Positions 1 to 8,251 of a DNA stretch of 8,251 bases are shown here, in pieces. The notes under the pieces are model-generated. The model ran no database searches, was not told the DNA's origin, and worked only from the letters and a program-made list of their open reading frames with translations. The DNA lies in IMG/VR virus record IMGVR_UViG_3300029094_000065; one strand, given 5' to 3'. Source of the DNA: a virus. Each line of letters starts with the position of its first letter. The stretch's first letter is position 1. Position numbers and translations under genes: made by a program.

Positions 1-99
1 TGGCTTATTCATAAAAATTTCCCTCCTGATATCTTAATAACTGACTGCGCAACTTGTTAAATATGGGACCCTCAATCTCAAAGGGACGGTCCAGGAGCA
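1..99. repeat. Terminal direct repeat, identical to 8153-8251, marking circular closure of an 8,152-bp unit
   Basis: Positions 1-99 (tggcttattcataaaaatttccc...ggtccaggagca) recur exactly at 8153-8251. One ORF (the RHH gene starting at 8164) runs through the junction and continues at 12..1. Confidence 0.9.
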
Positions 100-925
100 G
101 GGCCTTATACTTTAACTTTGTAGGCCGGGAAAGCTGACGAAGGTAATAGTCCATCCGGTCTACCGGCTGTTCCGCAAGGAGCTGTACCATGACCTTTGAT
201 TCCGCCAGGTCTATCACTTTACGGGTATAGACATTGGGCCAGCAACGGTAACAATCTATGTAGTCCAGGCTATCCAGCGTAACCTCTATCCGGGTGAGGG
301 GATAATCAAGGCCAGCCTCTATCTGTTTGTTGTAGACCTTTACCCGGCCAGGAGAGGACATGCATCCTAAATATTCTGTAAAGTCCTGTGCTGATTTGTA
401 AAACTGGCTGTATTTCCTGTTATCCTTGATAAGCTGCACACAGTCACGGCCATAAGGTACATCCACTGCTAAATCCCATCTTTTTATCTTTATTGTTTCT
501 ACTATGGGGAACAACTCATTTAGGACCATCCTTAAGACTTCTCCTATCTGACTTTGCAGGTCTTTGAACCCTGTTTCCTCCTGGTCGAAGGGGGAGACAC
601 TTGTACGCATGAACCCATCATCATAAGCAATCTCACCAAGTATCTTGTTTGGGTTAAAGTCCAGGAAACCCTGTAAAACTGTTTCTTTCTTTACACCATT
701 CATACAAAGTCCAATGGAAAATGATAATCCTTTGATACCAAACACAAAAAGGTATCGGTAATCAAAATCCTTTAAAGAATGATAGTGCGTACAGCCTGGA
801 AGATGGGAGAGGAAGGAAAGGAAGGATTCAACTGTATCTACGTCCGGAAACTCAAAAGAGTACCGGAGGGAATCACAGGAATAAAATATGCCATCCTCAA
901 GGAGCGGATTGAAGTAGTAAAGCAT
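5..925 (-). CDS. Rolling-circle replication initiator (gpII/RstA-like HUH endonuclease), 306 aa
   Basis: ATG at 925 sits behind AGGAGG with an 8-nt spacer. It carries an HUH-like THYHSL motif and a candidate catalytic Tyr in VKVYNKQ. Its size and its place in an inovirus-like gene set fit gpII/RstA/Phage_CRI-type Reps. The stop at 5-7 is overlapped by the start of the next gene (ATGAATAA). Confidence 0.65.
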   Translation of the reverse strand: MLYYFNPLLEDGIFYSCDSLRYSFEFPDVDTVESFLSFLSHLPGCTHYHSLKDFDYRYLFVFGIKGLSFSIGLCMNGVKKETVLQGFLDFNPNKILGEIAYDDGFMRTSVSPFDQEETGFKDLQSQIGEVLRMVLNELFPIVETIKIKRWDLAVDVPYGRDCVQLIKDNRKYSQFYKSAQDFTEYLGCMSSPGRVKVYNKQIEAGLDYPLTRIEVTLDSLDYIDCYRCWPNVYTRKVIDLAESKVMVQLLAEQPVDRMDYYLRQLSRPTKLKYKALLLDRPFEIEGPIFNKLRSQLLRYQEGNFYE

Positions 926-982
926 AAGCAGGACCTCCTAAAAGAAAGTTAAGTTACTAAACAAGTGTAAAGAATTTTTACG

Positions 983-1016
983 GACTTCGGACCTAATTAG
1001 ACAGGGGTCCGAAGTC
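983..1016. other. Perfect 11-bp stem (gacttcggacc / ggtccgaagtc) with a 12-nt loop (taattagacagg) between the ATPase and Rep genes. It could be the double-strand origin nick hairpin or an attenuator.
   Basis: Inverted repeat read directly from the sequence. It sits in the 93-nt gap immediately upstream of the Rep start. On the minus strand it is not followed by a clean U-tract. Confidence 0.45.
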
Positions 1017-1018
1017 GG

Positions 1019-1804
1019 TCACCGTTTCTTACGGTTCCATTTCCTCACGACCTCATGAAGCTGTACGCGTCCGCCGGCCATCGCGCGGCGGAGCGCTCCC
1101 AGCTTCCCCTGTTTCACCAGTTCCGGGAAGGGCATGTATTCAAACTCCTTCTCCGGGAGCAGGGGAGGATTGTAGGAATTGAAATACTTTACATACTTCG
1201 GGATGTAGGTAAAACGCACGGAACCGAAGGGGGCCAGGAGCAGGGAATCAATGTTGTAATCATCCACTATCTTTGATTCACCGCTGGCCGACTTATCCGC
1301 ATGGACAACGGCAACTGTCTTTGTGATACGCCTGGCAATGGAAAAGCAGTTCAGGAAGTTGTGGATGATGTACAGATGGTCAGTAAGGTCACGTATCTTC
1401 TTGTCAACATCAAAGGACTGGGAGAACAGATACACGATATGTTTATACTGCCGCTGATATTTGAAATAAACCTTTACGTGTTCCGGGAAGGACTTGAAAT
1501 TACGGTTATCCCATACAAGGCCCACCTCATCTATAAGCAGGATAGAATTTTCAGGAAAATGGGCAACACCAATATCAACGGTATCGAAGTGATAAGTTCC
1601 AGGTATATGCACGTTGCTATAGACGTGCCACCCCTTCTTACGGTATTTAAGTGCCATTTTACACATGAGCGTAGTCTTGCCACTACCTTTCTTGCCAAAG
1701 ACCATAAAGAGCTTATATGGATTGCGATACTTAAAGAAATGATAAGCAAAAAAGACAATCCAAAACATGCCAAAGCCAAAGAGTAGAACAGAAAACGCAT
1801 ACAT
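1019..1804 (-). CDS. Zot/pI-like morphogenesis P-loop ATPase with an N-terminal membrane anchor, 261 aa
   Basis: N-terminal TM helix (FSVLLFGFGMFWIVFFAYHFF). Walker A GKKGSGKTT and Walker B ILLIDEVG. The start ATG overlaps the stop of the upstream small ORF (TAATG). It sits where the assembly ATPase belongs in an inovirus gene set. Confidence 0.6.
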   Translation of the reverse strand: MYAFSVLLFGFGMFWIVFFAYHFFKYRNPYKLFMVFGKKGSGKTTLMCKMALKYRKKGWHVYSNVHIPGTYHFDTVDIGVAHFPENSILLIDEVGLVWDNRNFKSFPEHVKVYFKYQRQYKHIVYLFSQSFDVDKKIRDLTDHLYIIHNFLNCFSIARRITKTVAVVHADKSASGESKIVDDYNIDSLLLAPFGSVRFTYIPKYVKYFNSYNPPLLPEKEFEYMPFPELVKQGKLGALRRAMAGGRVQLHEVVRKWNRKKR

Positions 1805-1965
1805 TAAAACACCCCCTTAACAAGCTGTTTCGTGATACGGATAAGGCCAACGGGTAACAGGATTAAAAGCATGAACTGCCACATAATATTCGTATCAAGG
1901 GTAAAGGCATCCGGGGACATGGGGAACAGAATCACATCTATAAAAAGGTTGAATAAATCAATCAT
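1804..1965 (-). CDS. Small hydrophobic protein, 53 aa (MIDLFNLFIDVILF...FMLLILLPVGLIRITKQLVKGVF), translationally coupled to the ATPase
   Basis: GAGGTG ribosome-binding site 5 nt upstream of the ATG at 1965. One TM segment. Its stop TAA overlaps the ATG of the Zot-like gene. It falls below the 60-aa cutoff of the ORF track. Confidence 0.45.
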   Translation of the reverse strand: MIDLFNLFIDVILFPMSPDAFTLDTNIMWQFMLLILLPVGLIRITKQLVKGVF

Positions 1966-1983
1966 AAAATCACCTCAATGGGG

Positions 1984-2005
1984 GAAGGGGACCGGGGTCC
2001 CCTTC
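1984..2005 (-). terminator. GC-rich palindrome gaaggggacc-gg-ggtccccttc immediately downstream of the coat gene
   Basis: A palindrome of 10-bp arms sits 4 nt after the coat-gene stop. This echoes the strong terminator that follows gVIII in Ff phages. No U-tract follows, so it may only attenuate transcription or stabilise the RNA. Confidence 0.3.
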
Positions 2006-2009
2006 TGAA

Positions 2010-2294
2010 TCATACCTGATGGTAAATGCGCATGAAGAACGCAACCACGGCGCCAGCGAAGAACAGACACATGGCAGCCAAAAGGATGGGCTGACTTAAA
2101 ATCCAGGTGAGCAGAAGCCCACACTCCTTCCAAAGCCAGGCCGTGACCACGGAAAACGTGGCTAACAGACTGTCAAGGCCCGTGGCCGGAGTACCGCCCT
2201 CAGCAAAAGCCGGGAAAGCCATAGCAACAGACGCAACACCAGTGGCGACAGGGATGGAACGATACTTCTTAACCGCATTCTTAATCTTCAACAT
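2010..2294 (-). CDS. Major coat protein precursor, pVIII-like, 94 aa with a cleavable signal peptide
   Basis: ATG at 2294 lies 7 nt after AAGGAGGTG. The ORF track extends it to a TTG at 2315, which is probably not used. Signal peptide MLKIKNAVKKYRSIPVATGVASVAMAFPAFA. The mature N-terminus EGGTPATGLDSLLAT... parallels M13 pVIII SFA|AEGDDPAKAAFDSLQAS. A hydrophobic core follows. The C-terminus (FFMRIYHQV) is short and only weakly basic. Confidence 0.65.
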   Translation of the reverse strand: MLKIKNAVKKYRSIPVATGVASVAMAFPAFAEGGTPATGLDSLLATFSVVTAWLWKECGLLLTWILSQPILLAAMCLFFAGAVVAFFMRIYHQV

Positions 2295-2316
2295 AAACAA
2301 ACACCTCCTTATCAAT

Positions 2317-2475
2317 TTATAAAAGTCGCCTAAATATATCTACAACCTTCTTAAGAAGGGGCAGACCAATCACAAACATCCCCACCCAGTAGGAATGCCT
2401 CCAAAGGATATCAAACAGAAGTGATAACTCATGAAACATCCATTCAACAACCTTCATAACAATACCAAGGTTCAT
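2317..2475 (-). CDS. Small hydrophobic protein, 52 aa, a pVII/pIX-like minor coat candidate
   Basis: MNLGIVMKVVEWMFHELSLLFDILWRHSYWVGMFVIGLPLLKKVVDIFRRLL. It starts 4 nt after the stop of the previous mini-ORF and lies immediately upstream of the coat gene. That is the position gVII and gIX occupy in Ff. The ribosome-binding site is weak (GGCGGTG). Confidence 0.4.
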   Translation of the reverse strand: MNLGIVMKVVEWMFHELSLLFDILWRHSYWVGMFVIGLPLLKKVVDIFRRLL

Positions 2476-2479
2476 ATAA

Positions 2480-2623
2480 TCACCGCCTATCTATCAGCGA
2501 CACAAAGATATGGAAGAACTTATCCACAATCCATAAAAAAGCAATGAAGCCAAAGGCATAACAAACCGGATAGAACTGGACAGGGACATCCCCCATCAAC
2601 GCGAGGATTTTCTCCATAAACAT
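2480..2623 (-). CDS. Small hydrophobic protein, 47 aa, a pVII/pIX-like minor coat candidate
   Basis: MFMEKILALMGDVPVQFYPVCYAFGFIAFLWIVDKFFHIFVSLIDRR. GGGAGG ribosome-binding site 9 nt upstream of the ATG at 2623. It overlaps the 3' end of the 324-aa gene by 28 nt. Confidence 0.4.
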   Translation of the reverse strand: MFMEKILALMGDVPVQFYPVCYAFGFIAFLWIVDKFFHIFVSLIDRR

Positions 2624-3570
2624 ATCAAACAACCTCCCATCAGAACAACAACGATATATGTAAGCGTGTCAGAAACCTTGAATATATGATGATATTGATT
2701 CACCTGAATATTGACGTATGTATCACGATAGCGCAAACTACCGGAACTCCAATAATACTCCCTGACATAATTGGGGGAGCCATACTCGCTGATAGTGTAA
2801 AAGTTATTGCCAAGGCAGGGAGTAAGATACACAAGCTTACCTGTCTGCGCATACGGATTAAAATTCCCATCCACCAGACGGCCTTGAATGGTATTAGCCG
2901 AAACATTGAACAGACGGCCCTGACTGTCTACATAAAGGGAATCCGCATACTCAGGGGGAAAGAGAAGGGTATACTCCTGGCCTGAGATAGAAACATCATA
3001 ACGAAGTACATTAACATAATCGTCAGAAGCAGAAACCGAACGCGCCGAACGGACAGGGGCATCCATAGGAATAATATCTGTAGGGCCTTCCTCCAGGTCA
3101 GAAACATCCTGCGCATCCTCCAGGGAAGAAAGCGCAGCATCCGAGGAGGAAGCAAGACCGGGACCGCCAAAAGAATCACGAATAGCAACAAGTTCGCATA
3201 AAATGTATCGGAGTAAATCATCACGTTTTAAATCCTCAAAATCATCAATATCCATCAAGGTTCTATCATCAATCAATAAATCCACATCCGTGTAGGCTGC
3301 ATCCGAAGGAGAAGCAACCCATATATCATCCATATCCATGTCCCAATCCGTATCTGCATCCACCCTGGACGCATTGGAAGGTGTAGCTGTATCTGCATAG
3401 GCCAGGAGAGGGCAGGAGAGCAGGAAAAAACTACTTAGAGCCACCACTACGTTTAGATGCCCTGGGCGGACGAACCACGGAAGATGGACTACCTCCCGCA
3501 CCACGGAAGGAAATGACAAGCGTAGTAACAAACACAGAAACAACAAGGACAGCGACCAGAAAATCACCAT
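2596..3570 (-). CDS. Secreted, membrane-anchored virion or host-interaction protein, 324 aa, with pIII-like topology and a strongly acidic D-rich central domain
   Basis: ATG at 3570 with a textbook ribosome-binding site (AGGAGG, then 8 nt, then ATG). Hydrophobic N-terminus, then a second hydrophobic stretch ending LLAYA|DT that looks like a signal-peptidase site. Asp-rich low-complexity region (DADTDWDMDMDD...IDDFEDLKRDD). C-terminal TM anchor LTYIVVVLMGGCLICLW followed by RKSSR. Its 5' 140 nt lie inside the 77-aa ORF in the +1 frame. Confidence 0.6.
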   Translation of the reverse strand: MVIFWSLSLLFLCLLLRLSFPSVVREVVHLPWFVRPGHLNVVVALSSFFLLSCPLLAYADTATPSNASRVDADTDWDMDMDDIWVASPSDAAYTDVDLLIDDRTLMDIDDFEDLKRDDLLRYILCELVAIRDSFGGPGLASSSDAALSSLEDAQDVSDLEEGPTDIIPMDAPVRSARSVSASDDYVNVLRYDVSISGQEYTLLFPPEYADSLYVDSQGRLFNVSANTIQGRLVDGNFNPYAQTGKLVYLTPCLGNNFYTISEYGSPNYVREYYWSSGSLRYRDTYVNIQVNQYHHIFKVSDTLTYIVVVLMGGCLICLWRKSSR

Positions 3571-3664
3571 ATGAATATCCTCCTAAATCACTGCCAAATA
3601 AAAGGACAGCAATCTGCGAAACAATAAAGATACAAAAATCAATTAAATCACGCATCATAATCAT
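3431..3664 (-). CDS. Small membrane protein, 77 aa, with a basic C-terminal tail (RPPRASKRSGGSK), possibly a DNA-contacting virion protein
   Basis: Its ATG overlaps the stop of the pVI-like gene (TGATG). The track starts it at GTG 3667. Two hydrophobic segments are followed by an Arg/Lys-rich C-terminus that recalls the DNA-binding tails of inovirus coat proteins. It overlaps the start of the 324-aa gene. Confidence 0.45.
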   Translation of the reverse strand: MIMMRDLIDFCIFIVSQIAVLLFGSDLGGYSYGDFLVAVLVVSVFVTTLVISFRGAGGSPSSVVRPPRASKRSGGSK

Positions 3665-3882
3665 CACGACCCCTTATTAAGAATCTGGAACACAACCGCA
3701 AGGCTGATAGGGACAACCACAAAACCAACCATCCAGGGCGGGAGATAGGAAAGGCACATCACCAGCCAGCCAACGGAACGGACAATGTTAACAATCACAA
3801 GGATAAGCGTTGCAATCATGTTGACAATGAAGCCAACCACAGTTTCAACAAACCCGGCAACCGCATCAAAAAATTGAAACAT
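3664..3882 (-). CDS. Polytopic small membrane protein, 72 aa, a pVI-like minor coat candidate
   Basis: Its ATG immediately follows the TAA of the pIII-like gene (TAAATG). It is almost entirely hydrophobic with 2-3 TM segments. It sits directly after the adsorption-protein gene, as gVI does after gIII in Ff. Confidence 0.55.
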   Translation of the reverse strand: MFQFFDAVAGFVETVVGFIVNMIATLILVIVNIVRSVGWLVMCLSYLPPWMVGFVVVPISLAVVFQILNKGS

Positions 3883-5079
3883 TTATGTCCCCCCTTTGAA
3901 CCGATAATAGCCAATGCAGAGCATGGCAATCGTGAGAGTAAGGGAAAAGCCAATAGGGATATTCAAGCCCTTCATGTTATTGTAAATATGATTCAGGAAA
4001 TAGGATATATCCGATAAAGGCCCCCTAATACGGGTAAAATAATCATCATAACGGAACGAATTAATGTTATTGCTTACATCCTCCATTAACTGTTTTTCAT
4101 TTTCCTGCATATTGTGAATCGAATCATTCAACTGAGCATTGCTGTTATCCAGACGGGATTTATCATAACCATTTGCAAGTTTATCCGTATTTGCATTATT
4201 ATTGTTAATGATATTCGTGGTATTGGATTCCTGGGAATCAATGATATCCTCTGTATTGCGCCGGTTTGCGGCCAAATCCTCAGAATGATGTTGATTCATT
4301 TTGTTATACATGTTCGTGAACTCACCCGCCAGTTGGTCCCAAAAGGAATGGAGCTGGTTACTGATAGTCTGAGTGGTATCCACAATCTGGTCAATGATGG
4401 TATCCTGTTTCTGCACCAAAGCCGCCGTATTGTTAGCCGTATCCTGGACCGAATTGGCAATTGCCTGATTTTGTTCCGATGCATCCGGAAGAGGGGCAAC
4501 CGGATTGTTAATGTTACCGGATTCATAATCCCGGAAGGAAATGACCGAGGAAAAATTAAGTTTCTGCGTACCATAAAGAGGAAACGCATAAGGGAAAAAG
4601 AACTCAACCGAGGTGAGGGACTGGCTATTCACGTTATATGTAACCGTATAGAAGTCAGGGGGGATGGTATCCGAAGCAATCTTCGGAAGCTGGCCGGATA
4701 AATCCGAAGCGTTAGGTCTTTTAACACGGCCACGGGCATACATCCTATCAAGTAATAATGAAGTGCTACTTGTCTGGATGGAAACCTGAGCCTTCCACTT
4801 GCCAGTTGTCGGAAAAGAGGAGCGGGGAAGAACCAAAACAAAACCTTGAATGCCCATACCGTCAGAAGGAGTAAATTCCTTACCAAAAGCACCTTGCCCG
4901 CCAGCCTCCTGAACCTTACCAAGGGATTTCTTATAGGTTCCAGAACCATAAGCAAAAACTTCAACCGTTGACCAGTTAATCGTATTGGTAGATGTAGGAA
5001 GGTCCCCGGCCAAAACAGTCAGGGGAAATAACGAAAGGATAAAAAGCGCCAACAGGGCACTTAAAAACTTCTTAACCAT
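3883..5079 (-). CDS. pIII-like adsorption or minor coat protein, 398 aa, with a signal peptide, an N/Q/T-rich polar central region and a C-terminal membrane anchor
   Basis: Signal peptide MVKKFLSALLALFILSLFPLTVLA|GD. Long Asn/Gln/Thr-rich low-complexity region (NNNNANTDKLANGYDKSRLDNSNAQLNDS...). C-terminal TM IPIGFSLTLTIAMLCIGYY followed by RFKGGT. Ribosome-binding site TAGGGGGTG upstream of the ATG at 5079. Confidence 0.7.
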   Translation of the reverse strand: MVKKFLSALLALFILSLFPLTVLAGDLPTSTNTINWSTVEVFAYGSGTYKKSLGKVQEAGGQGAFGKEFTPSDGMGIQGFVLVLPRSSFPTTGKWKAQVSIQTSSTSLLLDRMYARGRVKRPNASDLSGQLPKIASDTIPPDFYTVTYNVNSQSLTSVEFFFPYAFPLYGTQKLNFSSVISFRDYESGNINNPVAPLPDASEQNQAIANSVQDTANNTAALVQKQDTIIDQIVDTTQTISNQLHSFWDQLAGEFTNMYNKMNQHHSEDLAANRRNTEDIIDSQESNTTNIINNNNANTDKLANGYDKSRLDNSNAQLNDSIHNMQENEKQLMEDVSNNINSFRYDDYFTRIRGPLSDISYFLNHIYNNMKGLNIPIGFSLTLTIAMLCIGYYRFKGGT

Positions 5080-5142
5080 AAAAAAAATACACCCCCTAAC
5101 AAAAGTGTTAAAAGATGTATCCTTATATACTTAAATCAGCCT

Positions 5143-5179
5143 TAACTATTCGTTAAACTAGACTTATCCCGAATAGTTA
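5143..5179. promoter_or_regulatory. 10-bp inverted repeat (taactattcg ... cgaatagtta) with a 17-nt loop in the leader of the pIII-like gene
   Basis: Read directly from the sequence. It lies between the stop of the 78-aa ORF (5214) and the pIII-like start (5079). On the minus strand an AT-rich TATATAAGG follows it. It could be an operator, a terminator or an internal promoter element. Confidence 0.3.
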
Positions 5180-5213
5180 GCTTATTTTATTAAGTATGTA
5201 GGGATACAGCTTG

Positions 5214-5450
5214 TCATATGTTACAGTCAGAGAGGGCATCCGCGATTTTATCATGGACCCCTTTCATGACCTTGATTTCAGATTCAGCAATGCTAAAACG
5301 CTCACTGGTAATGATATCCTCAAGAGAGCGAATCCGGCGTATCCGGGCACAGCGTTCCATCAATTCATCCAGACGGACATTGACAACCCGGTTAAGATAG
5401 CGCAGTTCCCGTTCCGTAAGTTCTATATGCATCTCGTCACCAACCTTCAT
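5214..5450 (-). CDS. Hypothetical charged, helical protein, 78 aa
   Basis: Open frame in operon polarity (MKVGDEMHIELTERELRYLNRVVNVRLDELMERCARIRRIRSLEDIITSERF...). The ribosome-binding site is weak. An alternative start at Met7 sits behind GGTGA. A plus-strand ORF of similar length overlaps it, so the strand call is tentative. Confidence 0.4.
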   Translation of the reverse strand: MKVGDEMHIELTERELRYLNRVVNVRLDELMERCARIRRIRSLEDIITSERFSIAESEIKVMKGVHDKIADALSDCNI

Positions 5451-5773
5451 TCACAACATATCAAAACCGTAAAACCTGCGGGAGCAACATAAAACAGATA
5501 CCCAGCAAGACAACACCAACTAAAATCTTATCAAATTCATCAAAATGCATACTGACACCAACCTTTACCTGTAACACATTTCCAGCCTCAGTAAATCCCA
5601 GGCCCGGACGGAGCTGCTACCGCCACGTGTTACATTTCTTATGTCCGCGGCCCCGTAGGTGCATCCATGGCATGATGAATCGCTACCGCCAGGGACCTGG
5701 CACTTTCTGTAGTCAAGGGGAAGGGGTATCCCCGGCCCCTAGGCTACACCGGAGGCCGGGGACTTCGCTTCCG
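5451..5773. other. Structured GC-rich non-coding region of 323 nt, the best candidate for the packaging signal and/or replication origins
   Basis: No convincing ORF. Local GC content is far above the rest of the genome. Three hairpins were read by eye: tccccggcc (5729-5737) pairing with ggccgggga (5754-5762); ggggtatcccc at 5723-5733; and tgtaacac at 5570-5577 pairing with gtgttaca at 5627-5634. SacII (ccgcgg) and NcoI (ccatgg) palindromes are also present. Confidence 0.5.
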
Positions 5774-6034
5774 CTAGTTTGGAGAATCAACCAACCGGCA
5801 TTCCTCAACAAAACCACCACGGCCATAGGAGATATCCACAAAATCATCTGGATGAATACCAGAAATATCCGGGGCATATTCACCGTTCCAGATGTCAACC
5901 TGTTCGACACGGCGGCCACGGACTTTATCGGGCTGTCTGGATGGAACTGCATAGAAACGGGTGAAGTCATAAGGCTTACCAGTCTTTTTAGAGATACCCT
6001 CGAATCTCTCAATGCCTAAAATCTCATATACCAT
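5774..6034 (-). CDS. ssDNA-binding protein, M13 gV-like OB fold, 86 aa
   Basis: ATG at 6034 with GAGAGG plus an 8-nt spacer. The ORF track extends it to a TTG at 6040. MVYEILGIERFEGISKKTGKPYDF... aligns with M13 gVp MIKVEIKPSQAQFTTRSGVSRQGKPYSL.... The C-terminal ...CRLV resembles gVp ...RLRLV. The length matches gVp (87 aa). Confidence 0.7.
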   Translation of the reverse strand: MVYEILGIERFEGISKKTGKPYDFTRFYAVPSRQPDKVRGRRVEQVDIWNGEYAPDISGIHPDDFVDISYGRGGFVEECRLVDSPN

Positions 6035-6120
6035 AATCAAAACCTCTCTTTCTCAACTAACTAAGTGATTGTTATATGTAATCCGGGGCAGAGCCGGAAA
6101 AGGATACCCCGAAGAACAAG

Positions 6121-6321
6121 CTATGTTGTCTGGACCTCACTGGATATGGACGGGATGGAATCCGTCTTTTCGTCCAGGTAAGCCAAAATATGTTCCAGGC
6201 GGGCGAAATGATATTGAAGAACATCCACACGGCACTGGTCATGCAAGGCCATGGCCCGGCATATCGCCACACTGGTTTCATTTTGTTCCTGCTCTATGAG
6301 AGCCTTGGAAAGTCTACGCAT
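6121..6321 (-). CDS. Hypothetical protein, 66 aa
   Basis: ATG at 6321 lies 6 nt after AGGAGGGG. The start overlaps the last 28 nt of the upstream 79-aa ORF. MRRLSKALIEQEQNETSVAICRAMALHDQCRVDVLQYHFARLEHILAYLDEK... Confidence 0.45.
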   Translation of the reverse strand: MRRLSKALIEQEQNETSVAICRAMALHDQCRVDVLQYHFARLEHILAYLDEKTDSIPSISSEVQTT

Positions 6322-6533
6322 TCTGGACCCCTCCTGTCAGTTTTATAAGCGTGAAGGACAACGGAAGACAAAGCATCAAACTCATCAATCGTAATTGCAT
6401 CAATGCTGAATGCAAAACTCAACTGTGAACGAATCCAAATATAGTTAAAACGGAAATCACCATCAACATCACCAAGAAGATACCGTTCTACAGCATCATT
6501 AAGTGTTTTACGGATACGCTTTTTATCCATCAT
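6294..6533 (-). CDS. Hypothetical protein, 79 aa
   Basis: ATG at 6533 lies 6 nt after GGAGGT, placing it 2 nt after the stop of the upstream ORF. MMDKKRIRKTLNDAVERYLLGDVDGDFRFNYIWIRSQLSF... Confidence 0.5.
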   Translation of the reverse strand: MMDKKRIRKTLNDAVERYLLGDVDGDFRFNYIWIRSQLSFAFSIDAITIDEFDALSSVVLHAYKTDRRGPECVDFPRLS

Positions 6534-6535
6534 GA

Positions 6536-6736
6536 TTACACCTCCATATCAACAGTAATATAAACCTTATTAACACCAAGTTCATATGTAAAAGCAGTAA
6601 CCACATGATTATGATAGTCTAAGACATCATCATTAAACCAATGACCAGACGCAAGCAAATAAAAATCAGAATCACGAATGACAAAACGTGTATTATCATC
6701 AACAAACCGTAAATAAAAAACATCAGAAACCCTCAT
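6536..6736 (-). CDS. Hypothetical beta-rich protein, 66 aa, the first gene of the minus-strand operon
   Basis: ATG at 6736 lies behind AAGGAGGG with a 7-nt spacer. The ORF track extends it to a TTG at 6757, which is probably not used. MRVSDVFYLRFVDDNTRFVIRDSDFYLLASGHWFNDDVLDYHNHVVTAFTYELGVNKVYITVDMEV. Confidence 0.5.
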   Translation of the reverse strand: MRVSDVFYLRFVDDNTRFVIRDSDFYLLASGHWFNDDVLDYHNHVVTAFTYELGVNKVYITVDMEV

Positions 6737-6755
6737 AATAAAACCCTCCTTAATC

Positions 6756-6815
6756 AACTAACTAAATCATCCTTGTGAACTAACTAAATTTGTGGTAAAA
6801 TAGATACTAACTAAG
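6756..6815 (-). promoter_or_regulatory. Three direct repeats of ACTAACTAA (TTAGTTAGT on the coding strand) in the leader of the minus-strand operon, with a fourth copy upstream of the gV-like gene at 6056-6064
   Basis: Core copies at 6757-6765, 6779-6787 and 6806-6814, spaced 22 and 27 bp apart. Their even, roughly two-helical-turn spacing upstream of the first operon gene suggests regulator-binding sites or iterons. Confidence 0.5.
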
Positions 6816-6857
6816 CGCTTAATTATTACTTATCGTTACACTAATAGTATAGCAAAG

Positions 6858-6926
6858 TATTGTACAATACGCAATAGGAATATTGTACAATACTTATGCT
6901 TGTATATAGTTGATATTGTACAATAC
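6858..6926. promoter_or_regulatory. Three perfect 12-bp palindromes TATTGTACAATA, read as operator sites in the divergent promoter region
   Basis: Copies at 6858-6869, 6881-6892 and 6914-6925, each followed by C. The first extends to the 14-bp palindrome gtattgtacaatac. Centre-to-centre spacing is 23 and 33 bp. The last copy ends 2 nt before the ribosome-binding site of the plus-strand RHH gene. Each palindrome carries the -35-like hexamer TTGTAC and the -10-like hexamer TACAAT. Confidence 0.65.
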
Positions 6927-6941
6927 TAAGGAGGTGACAAT

Positions 6942-7301
6942 ATGGACGAATCAAAGAAACAGCAATACAAAAGACAGAATGATTGGGCAAAAGAAAAATA
7001 TAAAAGAATAGCTTTAAATATACCAAGAGAAATGGATACACCAATAAAAGAAAAAGCCAAAGAAAATAATCTAAGCGTAAATGAATATATAAACAAATTA
7101 ATCATAAGTGACCTAACAAATATCAAAACCACAATACTAAATCCCCGACCTGCATTAACAGCAGAAGAGGAAGAAATTTTAAAATTAATCCAGGAGCTGA
7201 ACCAATACAACAGAGGAAGAGCAGAAGAAAGAATCAAAATGTTAATCGAGGAGCAGGCCAAAGACAATGACAATATGCAGAACGGAAGATTATACGGCTA
7301 G
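6942..7301 (+). CDS. Ribbon-helix-helix (CopG/Arc-like) DNA-binding protein, 119 aa, with a helical acidic C-terminal extension; likely the autoregulated repressor of the switch region
   Basis: AAGGAGGTG lies 5 nt before the ATG. The RHH signature is a beta strand KRIALNIPREM, helix A DTPIKEKAKENNLS and helix B VNEYINKLIISDL. The C-terminal helical region is EEEEILKLIQELNQY...EERIKMLIEEQAK. It is divergent from the structural operon, as RstR is in CTXphi. Confidence 0.7.
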   Translation: MDESKKQQYKRQNDWAKEKYKRIALNIPREMDTPIKEKAKENNLSVNEYINKLIISDLTNIKTTILNPRPALTAEEEEILKLIQELNQYNRGRAEERIKMLIEEQAKDNDNMQNGRLYG

Positions 7302-7407
7302 ATAAGCACAAACATAAAAAAAATAAATAGCCCCCTATAACGCACCAGAATGAACGAGAATCAATTTTAAGAGCTTAAGACAAAAATTCATCAAGGAGGA
7401 TATAAAA

Positions 7408-7638
7408 ATGGACAGAGAAACGATTGAAGCAATGAGAACACTATTAGAACCAATTACAAACAAGCTAGAGGACATAAATCTACAAATATCAGAACTAAAA
7501 ATCCAAATGGATACACTAAGGCTAGACATGAAAACCTCAGAAAGGTCCATCAGGAAAGAAATACACCATATCAACGATGGAATGGACACCTTAGTAGAAG
7601 TATTGGAAGCCAAAGGAATCCTACCGAAGGTAGAATAA
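7408..7638 (+). CDS. Coiled-coil protein of unknown function, 76 aa
   Basis: CAAGGAGGA lies 8 nt before the ATG. Heptad-like sequence LEDINLQISELKIQMDTLRLDMKTSERSIRKEIHHINDGMDTLVEVLEAKG. The region is AT-rich. Confidence 0.55.
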   Translation: MDRETIEAMRTLLEPITNKLEDINLQISELKIQMDTLRLDMKTSERSIRKEIHHINDGMDTLVEVLEAKGILPKVE

Positions 7639-7643
7639 CAGCA

Positions 7644-7670
7644 ATATCCCCGGCTCTATGCCGGGGATAT
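7644..7670. terminator. Perfect 11-bp stem (atatccccggc / gccggggatat) with a 5-nt loop between the convergent transcription units
   Basis: Read directly from the sequence. A weak U-rich run (UGCUGUUAUUCU) follows on the minus-strand side and none follows on the plus side. It most likely terminates the long minus-strand operon after the 66-aa membrane gene. It could also pause plus-strand read-through. Confidence 0.45.
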
Positions 7671-7685
7671 GCGAAAGGAGTAAAC

Positions 7686-7793
7686 ATGGAAAATATAATC
7701 AATGGAATCATTGGACTAACTACAAATAAAGCTTTTTGGTGTTGTGGAGCTATAGCATTAACCATGTTCCTGTTTAGAAAATTCAAAGATTAG
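7686..7793 (+). CDS. Small membrane peptide, 35 aa (MENIINGIIGLTTNKAFWCCGAIALTMFLFRKFKD)
   Basis: AAAGGAG lies 5 nt before the ATG. One TM segment with a basic C-terminus. Its 3' end overlaps the convergent 66-aa gene by 11 nt. It is below the ORF-track cutoff and rests on the ribosome-binding site plus hydrophobicity only. Confidence 0.35.
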   Translation: MENIINGIIGLTTNKAFWCCGAIALTMFLFRKFKD

Positions 7794-7983
7794 CAATGTA
7801 CTTAAAGTAAAAGGAAAATAGAATAAATGCAATCATGTAAACATAACATACAATCATGTCCAAGTCGGTATACTTCCTGCCACGCGAACGCTTGCGGACA
7901 AAATAGTTATGGATAGCAAAGTATAAAAGCGGCAAAACAACAAAGAAAACCGAACAGAAATAAATTTCATCCTCAGACGTCAT
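7783..7983 (-). CDS. Two-helix small membrane protein, 66 aa, translationally coupled to the upstream RHH gene
   Basis: ATG at 7983 lies 1 nt after the RHH stop (GGAGGATTAATATG, which supplies a GGAGGA ribosome-binding site). MTSEDEIYFCSVFFVVLPLLYFAIHNYFVRKRSRGRKYTDLDMIVCYVYMIAFILFSFYFKYIANL has two TM segments separated by a basic loop. The 108-aa extension shown in the ORF track (to 8109) runs out of frame through the RHH gene and is probably not real. Confidence 0.5.
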   Translation of the reverse strand: MTSEDEIYFCSVFFVVLPLLYFAIHNYFVRKRSRGRKYTDLDMIVCYVYMIAFILFSFYFKYIANL

Positions 7984-7984
7984 A

Positions 7985-8164
7985 TTAATCCTCCTCAATC
8001 GCCCCACGCTTGATTGCCTCAGCCAGGCCGACCTGGACAAGCCTTGTTGCCATTTCAGCCGGGGTGGAGTAGCATTCACAGAACTCCATGTACCTGCAAA
8101 GGCGGTCATACTGTTTCGTGGTCAGATAAACATTGACTTTGATTTTTCCAACTGGCTTATTCAT
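7985..8164 (-). CDS. Ribbon-helix-helix protein, 59 aa, translationally coupled to the 3' end of the Rep gene across the circular junction
   Basis: MNKPVGKIKVNVYLTTKQYDRLCRYMEFCECYSTPAEMATRLVQVGLAEAIKRGAIEED. A beta strand (KIKVNVYLT) is followed by two helices. Its ATG at 8164 (copied at 12..10) lies behind AGGAGGG inside the Rep 3' end and overlaps the Rep stop (ATGAATAA). The ORF track misses it because it is under 60 aa. Confidence 0.6.
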   Translation of the reverse strand: MNKPVGKIKVNVYLTTKQYDRLCRYMEFCECYSTPAEMATRLVQVGLAEAIKRGAIEED

Positions 8165-8251
8165 AAAAATTTCCCTCCTGATATCTTAATAACTGACTGC
8201 GCAACTTGTTAAATATGGGACCCTCAATCTCAAAGGGACGGTCCAGGAGCA
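8153..8251. repeat. Second copy of the terminal direct repeat, identical to 1-99
   Basis: Exact 99-nt identity with the start of the window. It reflects circular-genome read-through or a concatemer junction. Confidence 0.9.

Follow-up and report, generated by a model that had tools for sequence, protein, structure and literature searches.

A temperate filamentous phage of Enterocloster with a dif-like attachment site and its probable use of a host Xer-like recombinase

How a filamentous phage lacking a recognizable integrase gene becomes established at one fixed place in its host's chromosome is the question raised by the IMG/VR virus record IMGVR_UViG_3300029094_000065, a stretch of 8,251 nucleotides that was analyzed at its full length and is hereafter referred to as the window. 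With a probability of roughly 70%, the window was interpreted as a complete circular genome of 8,152 bp, belonging to a temperate filamentous phage (Tubulavirales) whose host is Enterocloster and which follows the life cycle proposed below. As judged from its attachment site and from the chromosomal sites occupied by its relatives, the phage probably exploits the Xer recombination of its host for integration.

One trait that marks the integrative mobile elements exploiting Xer (IMEX), namely the lack of a self-encoded recombinase, was found in the window, since searches with its open reading frames (ORFs) in Pfam, PHROGs and NCBIfam gave no match to any family of integrases, transposases or recombinases. 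The other, a dif-mimicking attP with prophages lying between a wild-type and a modified site, was found at the prophage junctions, the anatomy of which could be read directly from host contigs. The window was colinear with prophages in 15 long contigs, and only positions 5145–5178 matched both prophage ends; a search of host contigs for flanking att sites, which an earlier note based on the letters of the window had recommended, thus located the attachment site. This attP, read on the minus strand as AACTATTCG-GGATAA-GTCTAG-TTTAACGAATAGT, mimics a dif-like site of the host, with a centre and right arm identical to those of the host site and an inner left arm that is degenerate and 1 nt longer. 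The shared core, AACTATTCG-N5/6-GTCTAGTTTAACGAATAGT, matched once in the window, where 0 matches were expected by chance. At the left end of every prophage in the 15 contigs stood the perfect host-type site AACTATTCGCGAAAGTCTAGTTTAACGAATAGTT, and at the right end the inner left arm was swapped to GGATAA (the window type), CTAATAA, CGATAA or TTCTT, the window's own GGATAA variant being present in contigs L072, L074, L075 and L077. All 15 prophages were accordingly flanked by a wild-type site on the left and a modified site on the right.

The same junctions bear on the possibility that a tyrosine recombinase encoded next to these prophages is the phage's own integrase and that the window is a derivative that lost the gene. 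In the C. porci-type contigs, a gene for a 354-aa tyrosine recombinase abuts the right prophage end, from which it is separated by ~85 bp, and the corresponding gene also abuts that end in L076; furthermore, the Inovirus Detector counts direct repeats that lie 'outside of an integrase gene' among the canonical att sites, and the IMG/VR predictions L057 and L058 take in the recombinase gene. The gene, however, lies outside the repeats and outside all DNA homologous to the window, and it was absent between the att sites in the circular window and in all 15 prophages. In about 30 species, moreover, the gene is found next to a perfect site that is unoccupied, with ordinary host genes around it and the chromosomal synteny conserved, and the published genomes of 6.5–8.5 kb list no recombinase (PMC10061712). 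Ownership of the gene by the phage was thus judged very unlikely. A placement of the recombinase gene inside the element was likewise rejected, as a third copy of the site beyond the gene was sought and not found. The predictions L057 and L058 both span from the dif-like site through the host Xer-like gene, and at this locus prophage borders placed by the rule 'direct repeat next to an integrase' probably take in host DNA. Earlier work relied on such 'direct repeats next to an integrase' for the bounds of these prophages, and the question to whom the integrase belongs was not raised.

On the host side, the site was surveyed by scanning one genome per species with the exact core pattern. The core occurred once per locus in 46 species-representative assemblies, nearly all of them Lachnospiraceae, with 2 of the 46 hits being inovirus contigs themselves (L013 and L044). 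Among the host-type sites (n = 43), the unspecified 5-nt spacer and the next T were also conserved, and conservation ended at the edges of a 34-bp site in which two 14-bp arms flank a 6-bp centre (GTCTAG); an inverted repeat is formed by 12 of the 14 arm positions. A gene for a Xer-like recombinase lay at most 3 kb from the site in 34 of the 46 loci (downstream and in the same orientation in 30), and its orthologues were about 62–89% identical in most loci. The best NCBIfam match of this recombinase was XerS (NF003462; E 4e-63, 213 bits), the XerC, XerA and XerD models gave 163–176 bits, and the nearest solved relatives among PDB sequences were XerD, XerA and XerH.

Perfect sites that stand unoccupied beside the Xer-like gene had ordinary host genes on both sides, and these differed between genera (FolC/FolP, flavodoxin, LexA, L25, a response regulator and an SBF-family transporter, PF01758). 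In one Enterocloster lineage, the site lay in a conserved chromosomal block with plus-strand genes on its left and minus-strand genes on its right. In each of the 22 loci with enough phage-free flank, GC skew on the left exceeded that on the right (p = 5e-7), as exemplified by +0.13/-0.13 around the C. porci prophage. In addition, the site fell at 50.1% of the Lacrimispora sinapis record (1,880,863 of 3,753,647) and at 49.8% of the E. aldenensis record (about 3,169,751 of 6,369,821), positions that are meaningful only if those assembly records start near oriC. In an Enterocloster lineage represented by L078–L085 (about 9084–9121), the same 14-bp arms enclosed the centre GAATAG instead of GTCTAG; unchanged arms around an altered centre are the behaviour of a recombinase core site. 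This GAATAG site lies ~880 bp upstream of the Xer-like gene, with a TtcA-like (PP-loop) gene in between, and in one strain a type II-A CRISPR-Cas locus (Cas9, Cas1, Cas2 and Csn2; L081, 1783–7676) is inserted between HPr and the dif-like site.

The host site therefore showed terminus signals, a single copy, palindromic arms, a non-coding position and variable flanks, and by these in-silico criteria, which were also used for difSL and the dif of Legionella, it looks like a dif site. The Xer-like enzyme would then catalyze the integration of the phage, and the site would ordinarily serve the resolution of chromosome dimers. Beyond the phage itself, we lean towards a wider reading in which many Lachnospiraceae (Enterocloster, Hungatella, Lacrimispora, Acetatifactor, Roseburia and others) possess an undescribed single-recombinase Xer system, composed of a XerS-like enzyme of 350–355 aa and a 34-bp dif with 14-bp arms and a 6-bp centre, and in which the widespread Enterocloster inoviruses of the gut, the window among them, are the first IMEX phages to be described from Gram-positive bacteria. 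This reading also includes mixed prophage arrays at dif and a role of the 6-bp centre as a host-range determinant. Neither PMC10061712 nor PMC6813254 mentions Xer or dif for these phages, and our literature search, whose coverage was incomplete so that an earlier description is possible, found neither a single-recombinase Xer system in Clostridia nor an IMEX in a Gram-positive host, nor any paper connecting XerS-like enzymes and Lachnospiraceae with dif.

Several observations weigh against these readings. The recombinase did not reach the equivalog cut-off of XerS (213 versus 267 bits), and in two other large assemblies the site was found 11% and 24% of the way along the record. In L069, L070 and L074, which represent the commonest host context of the window lineage, no Xer gene lies within ~3.5 kb of the prophage. 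As the scan employed the exact core pattern, the invariance of its 28 specified bases arises by construction. In the phage itself, the replication origin and its nick site were not identified in the window, and the coat, pIII-like and pVI-like labels given below are candidate assignments drawn from topology, position and weak published HHpred matches.

The score below the XerS equivalog level and the two off-centre records would also suit a different explanation, in which the 34-bp site is not dif but a favoured attB or a regulatory palindrome, the recombinase being a domesticated integrase with another role; the phage would still use that recombinase, or another host enzyme. Such an explanation has to accommodate the 14+6+14 architecture with conserved arms and a lineage-specific centre, the single copy per locus, the fixed orientation relative to the sign change of the GC skew in 22/22 loci, flanking genes that converge on the site, and its mid-chromosome position in two assemblies. 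The linkage of gene and site moreover resembles that of xerS/difSL and xerH/difH, and the same criteria recognized the dif of Legionella. We thus regard it as unlikely that the site is something other than dif, and the use of a dif-like site by way of a host Xer-like enzyme was retained as the preferred reading.

Arrays of prophages were observed at the same locus. In L068, a window-type phage was followed by a head-to-tail tandem copy, and in L073, L075 and L077 a second, different inovirus abutted the right end of the window-type prophage. L068 (2277–8624) and L071 (2236–8691) further carried, immediately left of the perfect site, a different inovirus in the opposite orientation. These oppositely oriented phages encode a Rep_trans or a REP_ORF2-G2P initiator. 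Phages other than the window type may thus use the quasi-palindromic site in the reverse direction, the degenerate arm then perhaps being the opposite one. Directly right of the phage-type att site in L072 (17027–19694) stands a Mu-like transposition module (rve/Mu-transpos_C and an AAA_22 ATPase), which indicates that the locus attracts other mobile elements as well.

These arrays raise the question of whether the contig itself is an assembler's collapse of tandem integrated copies, with its closure representing an array junction and not replicative-form or virion DNA. As the earlier note had claimed, the window closes on itself: the terminal redundancy at positions 1–99 (no strand) exactly equals 8153–8251, 99 nt is the longest terminal overlap, and an 8,152-bp unit results. 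The head-to-tail copy in L068 and the frequency of mixed arrays would fit a collapse, and an internal array junction would match the attP sequence. A 99-nt overlap, however, arises from any cyclic path in an assembly graph with k = 99 and hence does not discriminate; the cycle is evident, and it need not be a free circle. Meanwhile, circular-junction amplicons were obtained for a close relative, both from the supernatants of cultures and from caecal contents (PMC10061712). Collapse of an array was considered the less probable origin of this contig, if a possible one; the two origins may hold side by side, and the identity of the element is the same under either. The contention that an episome and a prophage cannot be told apart from one unit accordingly held for the origin of this particular contig, but not for the phage lineage, of which integrated copies occur at a defined site in many genomes and for which the circular junction just mentioned was obtained experimentally.

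The unit has a G+C content of 42.6%, and its minus strand, which bears the long ORFs, is T-rich (34% T). Its size agrees with the small circular genomes of filamentous phages (about 5–15 kb), and the IMG/VR prophage L056 is a circular permutation of it, corresponding to the window circle opened exactly at 5179/5180. No tRNA gene and no Rfam family was found in the window, whereby tRNA-targeted integration was excluded. Scans of the window for promoter and terminator consensus sequences performed no better than shuffles.

It is nearly certain that the window belongs to the published lineage of Enterocloster inoviruses (Burckhardt et al., 2023). Prophages from isolate genomes in IMG/VR (L056, L060, L061 and L063) were 95–99% identical to it at the nucleotide level, and its 398-aa protein (p398) is annotated in identical form as 'MULTISPECIES [Enterocloster]' on about 800 contigs, other members of such protein clusters coming from E. 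clostridioformis and E. citroniae. Inoviruses of 6.5–8.5 kb have been described in E. bolteae, E. clostridioformis, E. citroniae, E. aldenensis and Hungatella; they are flanked by direct repeats and are secreted in vitro as well as in mice, and filament secretion by near-identical Enterocloster phages was documented by transmission electron microscopy and quantitative PCR (PMC10061712). Table S5 of that study lists the genes of the window in the same order, several with identical sequences, and gives HHpred matches of Zot to IKe G1P (99.6%) and of Rep to a rolling-circle 'replication initiation protein' (99.97%) (PMC10061712). The published primers for the 'conserved circularization region' map to 5090–5114 (exact) and 5226–5245 (3 mismatches) of the window and flank attP. 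The Gram-positive host that had been suspected from the sequence as one of two alternatives was thus borne out, given the occurrence of p398 in Enterocloster and the secretion of near-identical phages as filaments by this genus, and so was the core of the earlier reading, namely a complete, circularly closing inovirus genome without a secretin.

Compared with the inoviruses of E. bolteae ATCC BAA-613 and E. clostridioformis WAL-7855 and 2_1_49FAA, the window has the same gene order, an identical 324-aa protein (p324), 94-aa coat precursor, 59-aa ribbon-helix-helix (RHH) protein and 66-aa 'gene 14' product, near-identical Zot, p398, Rep and RstB, and 95–99% nucleotide identity over most of the genome. 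The attachment region, spanned by the junction primers at 5090–5245, is likewise common to them. The window differs in its regulatory module, which codes for an Arc-like repressor of 119 aa and a coiled-coil protein of 76 aa; the published strains instead encode an omega-like RHH of 83 aa or a DUF2726 protein. It also has an attP left-arm variant of its own, GGATAA. The gene order, which had been described as unusual, is so only in comparison with the Ff phages: the Enterocloster inoviruses share it, and Rep stands behind Zot in Dulem virus 72 and bajarodino virus 29 as well.

The replication initiator, Rep (306 aa; 5–925, minus strand), was assigned to the Rep_trans (pT181 RepC/RepD) class of rolling-circle initiators on the basis of its family profile, an AlphaFold2 model and Foldseek. 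As a single sequence, Rep matched nothing in Pfam (none at E ≤ 1), PHROG, NCBIfam or the PDB sequences. A search for homologues retrieved 81, and in the family alignment the motifs FNPNK, DLAVD, TEYLG, VKVYNK and TRIE were invariant or nearly so, the invariant residues being D151, D155, Y198, K200, R212 and E214. The family profile found the staphylococcal RepDE structures 4CWC and 4CWE with E 4e-7, with the conserved motifs aligned, and 16 of 36 homologues weakly matched PF02486 (Rep_trans; best E 1e-3). The lack of a Pfam match for Rep itself together with these weak matches of its homologues indicates a divergent branch of Rep_trans. Furthermore, the AlphaFold2 model (pLDDT 89) retrieved 4CWE, 4CWC and 4CIJ at E 1.5e-11 to 1e-7, the first of these with E 1.5e-11 and a TM-score of 0.58–0.65. 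We therefore hold with high confidence that Rep is a divergent initiator of the pT181 RepC/RepD class, and Tyr198 within VKVYNK is likely to be its catalytic residue, as predicted from the alignment. The HUH class, to which Rep had been ascribed, was rejected, because the H-Y-H stretch of the window protein (aa 48–50) is not conserved across 35 homologues and both fold and profile are those of Rep_trans.

The position of Rep behind the assembly ATPase and ahead of a small ORF was as described in the earlier note, the start of the 59-aa ORF overlapping the end of rep by 8 nt. The spacer between zot and rep contains an imperfect hairpin with 27-nt arms (967–1032, no strand), and it is ~78–80% conserved together with rep in L044 and L059, where zot has ~65% nucleotide identity. 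This conservation hints at a cis-acting role, the spacer being a candidate Rep promoter or origin. The Reps of bajarodino viruses 2 and 29 are unrelated in sequence to that of the window; as these relatives share Zot and carry unrelated Reps at the same or other positions, replication modules have been exchanged. The Rep of bajarodino virus 2 (L002, 2240–3268), the closest deposited relative by Zot, has no detectable similarity to the Rep of the window, contains an H-T-H-L-F stretch and may be a genuine HUH initiator. Initiators from different superfamilies accompany structural modules that are related to one another.

Since Rep_trans initiators are typical of Gram-positive rolling-circle plasmids, a plasmid or other non-viral mobile element that merely carries a Zot-like ATPase was also considered. 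The full morphogenesis module (Zot, coat precursor, and pIII- and pVI-like proteins), the occurrence of this Zot in 78 deposited inovirus genomes, and the filaments and secreted genomes reported for near-identical elements (PMC10061712) render a non-viral element extremely improbable. The 261-aa Zot/pI-type assembly ATPase (1019–1804, minus strand), which has an N-terminal transmembrane segment, matched PF05707 with 34.4 bits against a Pfam cut-off of 20.3 and phrog_25712 with E 5e-26; the window hence contains the pI/Zot-type morphogenesis ATPase expected of filamentous phages, in agreement with the earlier annotation. Its matches in the 78 deposited gut inoviruses (bajarodino, Dulem and porcine records) were 40–62% identical, with the Zot of bajarodino virus 2 at 62%.

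Of the remaining genes, all those of the long operon lie on the minus strand, and Shine–Dalgarno sites of the GGAGG type precede nearly all credible ORFs by 5–12 nt, so that the near-universal strong ribosome-binding sites noticed earlier were confirmed. The operon begins with a 66-aa protein (6536–6736; start taken from the equivalent 66-aa gene call in prophage L069), a 79-aa protein (6294–6533; 'gene 13' of the published phages, matched in Table S5) and a second 66-aa protein (6121–6321; 'gene 14', with the same sequence as in Table S5 of PMC10061712). The next gene encodes an 86-aa RstB-like single-stranded DNA (ssDNA)-binding protein (5774–6034), which matched phrog_929 with E 1.1e-5 and Pfam CTX_RstB with E 0.043 and was 24% identical over its full length to a bajarodino 'RstB-like protein'. 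A near-identical ssDNA-binding protein had given an HHpred match to CTX_RstB at 99.5% (Table S5, PMC10061712). Its AlphaFold2 model was an all-beta, five-strand barrel (pLDDT 91) whose Foldseek neighbours were oligonucleotide-binding (OB) folds, none of them significant (best E 0.22); the assignment accordingly relies on the PHROG match, the pairwise match and the published HHpred result rather than on the fold search. By the same PHROG and HHpred matches, the protein is closer to CTX RstB than to the gV of Ff, to which it had first been likened. A 72-aa protein (5214–5432; equivalent 72/73-aa gene calls in the prophages) is the final gene ahead of attP.

After a 134-bp spacer follow p398 (3883–5079), a pIII-like protein composed of a signal peptide at the N-terminus, a coiled-coil middle part and an anchor at the C-terminus (transmembrane segments 1–29 and 371–390), and a 72-aa pVI-like protein (3664–3882) with three transmembrane segments, so labelled by position and topology. 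The sequence of p398 is 100% identical in many Enterocloster prophages and hit no specific family in Pfam or PHROG; for the 72-aa protein, the index of the assembly collection gives 5,470 blocks with an identical sequence. These two proteins agree with the pIII- and pVI-like membrane proteins described previously. The 324-aa membrane protein p324 (2596–3570), with N-terminal hydrophobic segments and a C-terminal anchor, may be a second pIII-like or an assembly protein and is identical to a protein of E. clostridioformis 538.

In the late part of the operon, three small hydrophobic proteins surround a candidate major-coat precursor. These are a 47-aa single-transmembrane protein (2480–2623), a candidate minor virion protein with a published HHpred match to G7P of phiLf at only 81% (PMC10061712); a 52-aa protein with a basic C-terminus (2317–2475; listed in Table S5, no family); and a 53-aa single-transmembrane protein (1804–1965), whose stop overlaps the start of zot. 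The coat candidate (94 aa; 2010–2294) has a signal peptide ending in AFA, an acidic N-terminus and a transmembrane segment (65–99 of the 101-aa ORF). It matched nothing in Pfam or PHROG, and an identical protein was matched by HHpred to IKe G8P (97.2%, E 0.011; Table S5, PMC10061712); a pVIII-like precursor, as the earlier note had it, is thus present as a signal-peptide candidate. A hairpin with a 10-bp perfect stem directly 3' of this gene (1984–2005, no strand) is a candidate terminator or attenuator. Beyond zot and rep, the operon closes with a 59-aa probable RHH protein (7985–8164), whose start overlaps the stop of rep, and a 66-aa protein with two transmembrane segments (7783–7983). The 59-aa protein had no significant Pfam or PHROG match, and an identical protein gave HHpred RHH 94% (E 0.57; Table S5, PMC10061712). 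The transmembrane segments of the 66-aa protein were predicted in a longer ORF, and its start follows 66-aa prophage gene calls at the same position: the 108-aa ORF as listed (7783–8109) was unsupported and was replaced by this internal start. A 38-aa ORF (5461–5577) was dropped as unsupported. Profile searches returned no informative family for the small ORFs of 53, 52, 47, 38, 66, 79 and 73 aa. None of the ORFs, the largest of which has 398 aa, matched a secretin family, which confirms the absence of a pIV-like secretin and is to be expected because the host is monoderm.

The genes were earlier placed all on one strand; the plus strand, however, holds ORFs of 119 aa, 76 aa and, possibly, 35 aa, all of them provided with a GGAGG site. 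The 119-aa protein (6942–7301), divergent from the main operon and preceded by AAGGAGG, is an Arc/RHH-like repressor that matched phrog_13890 (E 3e-9) and phrog_582, 'Arc-like repressor' (E 4e-7), with weak Pfam matches to HicB and Arc. The 76-aa protein (7408–7638), also present in prophage L069, showed weak coiled-coil profile matches. In the divergent intergenic region, a repeat search found three perfect palindromes, TATTGTACAATA, with 100% complementarity (6855–6927, no strand), at 6855–6869, 6881–6895 and 6914–6927 and thus with spacings of 26 and 33 bp; judged from their position, these putative operators look like a cooperative array for the Arc-like repressor. Between the converging transcription units lies a GC-rich hairpin with an 11-bp perfect stem (7644–7670, no strand), a probable bidirectional terminator. 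This regulatory module (6850–7604, compared with L005, L056, L060 and L074) is the hypervariable part of the lineage: in relatives, the 119- and 76-aa genes give way to an omega-like RHH, to a DUF2726 protein or to other small ORFs, while the structural and Rep modules stay 90–99% identical. In L073, a DDE transposase (DDE_Tnp_1, 535 aa; 14627–16234) sits within the window-like prophage, between the regulatory module and a 110-aa ORF behind the RHH gene.

Taken together, we propose the following life cycle. A divergent switch, comprising the Arc-like repressor and the three TATTGTACAATA operators, would control the long minus-strand operon. The Rep_trans-class initiator would nick the origin and drive rolling-circle synthesis of the T-rich coding strand, and the RstB-like protein would coat this strand as ssDNA. 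The coat precursor and the small membrane proteins would be inserted into the membrane, where the Zot/pI ATPase would extrude the filament; as extrusion would pass through a single membrane, no secretin would be needed. For lysogeny, a host Xer-like enzyme would integrate the phage at the 34-bp site, of which attP copies the centre and one arm. The attP would thereby act as a double-stranded mimic of dif in which the centre and one half-site are good and the other half-site is crippled, and strand exchange, whose order we infer, would occur within or to the right of the centre. Such exchange would regenerate a perfect site distal to the xer gene and leave a poorly recombining hybrid site at the other end. 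A perfect site paired with a crippled hybrid would account for a stable prophage, an intact dimer-resolution site and a locus open to further phages, from which arrays would build up.

As a phage genome, the window adds little, because the lineage, its host, the annotations and the secretion have already been published and near-identical prophages are present in IMG/VR. Its useful outputs are one correction, that Rep belongs to Rep_trans rather than to HUH, and one lead, the host Xer recombinase. If the recombinase is indeed the dimer-resolution enzyme of the host, it would represent a fifth single-recombinase Xer/dif system, present in a dominant family of gut bacteria, and the exploitation of Xer by filamentous phages would reach monoderm bacteria. 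The stacking of inoviruses in arrays at one locus would then be explained, there would be a simple determinant of the strains that a gut inovirus can lysogenize, and a natural tool for site-specific integration would be available for Lachnospiraceae, which are genetically hard to manipulate.

Among the known systems, the Ff phages and IKe share with the window a pI-type ATPase, a signal-peptide coat precursor, pIII- and pVI-like proteins, a small circular genome and a T-rich coding strand. The window differs from Ff in lacking the pIV secretin, in having a Rep_trans initiator instead of the HUH gpII and an RstB-like ssDNA-binding protein instead of gV, in being temperate, and in its gene order (pIII-pVI-...-pVIII-pI-Rep versus II-V-VII-IX-VIII-III-VI-I-IV). 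The pT181-family initiators (RepC/RepD/RepDE, RepSTK1; Pfam Rep_trans) have a fold in common with the Rep of the window, and the motifs FNPNK, RxDLAxD, TEYLG, (V/I)YNK with the catalytic Tyr, and TRxE can be aligned; identity is about 17%, and the present Rep is phage-borne rather than plasmid-borne. With the uncultivated gut inoviruses, similarity is confined to short stretches at the nucleotide level; the structural module is syntenic with those of bajarodino viruses 2 and 30, and the Rep that follows Zot in Dulem virus 72 is 39% identical. No paper on the 'bajarodino' viruses was found in the literature.

On the host side, the closest counterpart is XerS/difSL of streptococci and lactococci, where, as also for XerH/difH, a conserved site at the terminus usually stands ahead of the gene, as it does here. 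The recombinase described here has about 354 aa and XerS, its best NCBIfam match, 356 aa, and difSL consists of two imperfect inverted repeats like the present site. In contrast, the host site is 34 bp long, its 14-bp arms enclosing a centre of apparently 6 bp, while difSL has 31 bp in all and a centre of 11 bp; in sequence, the two resemble each other only in a TTCnnGAAA-like half-site, as compared with half-sites quoted in a review and without alignment. Unlike in XerS/difSL, the Xer-like gene lies kilobases away from the site in some Enterocloster genomes.

For the mode of integration, the window is best compared with the IMEX, namely VGJphi, TLCphi and CTXphi of Vibrio cholerae, the gonococcal genetic island (GGI) of Neisseria and LME-1 of Legionella, which like the window have no recombinase of their own. 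They too have a dif-mimicking attP with one defective half, are flanked by a wild-type and a modified dif, and form arrays; moreover, CTXphi has replication proteins of the RstA/RstB type, the second of which has a counterpart in the RstB-like protein of the window. The differences lie in the host, here a monoderm Firmicute, and in the presumed single XerS-like recombinase in place of XerC/XerD. Integration is read here from sequence, and, whereas CTXphi folds paired inverted sites from ssDNA, the attP of the window, which gave no sign of such a pair, is apparently a single double-stranded site.

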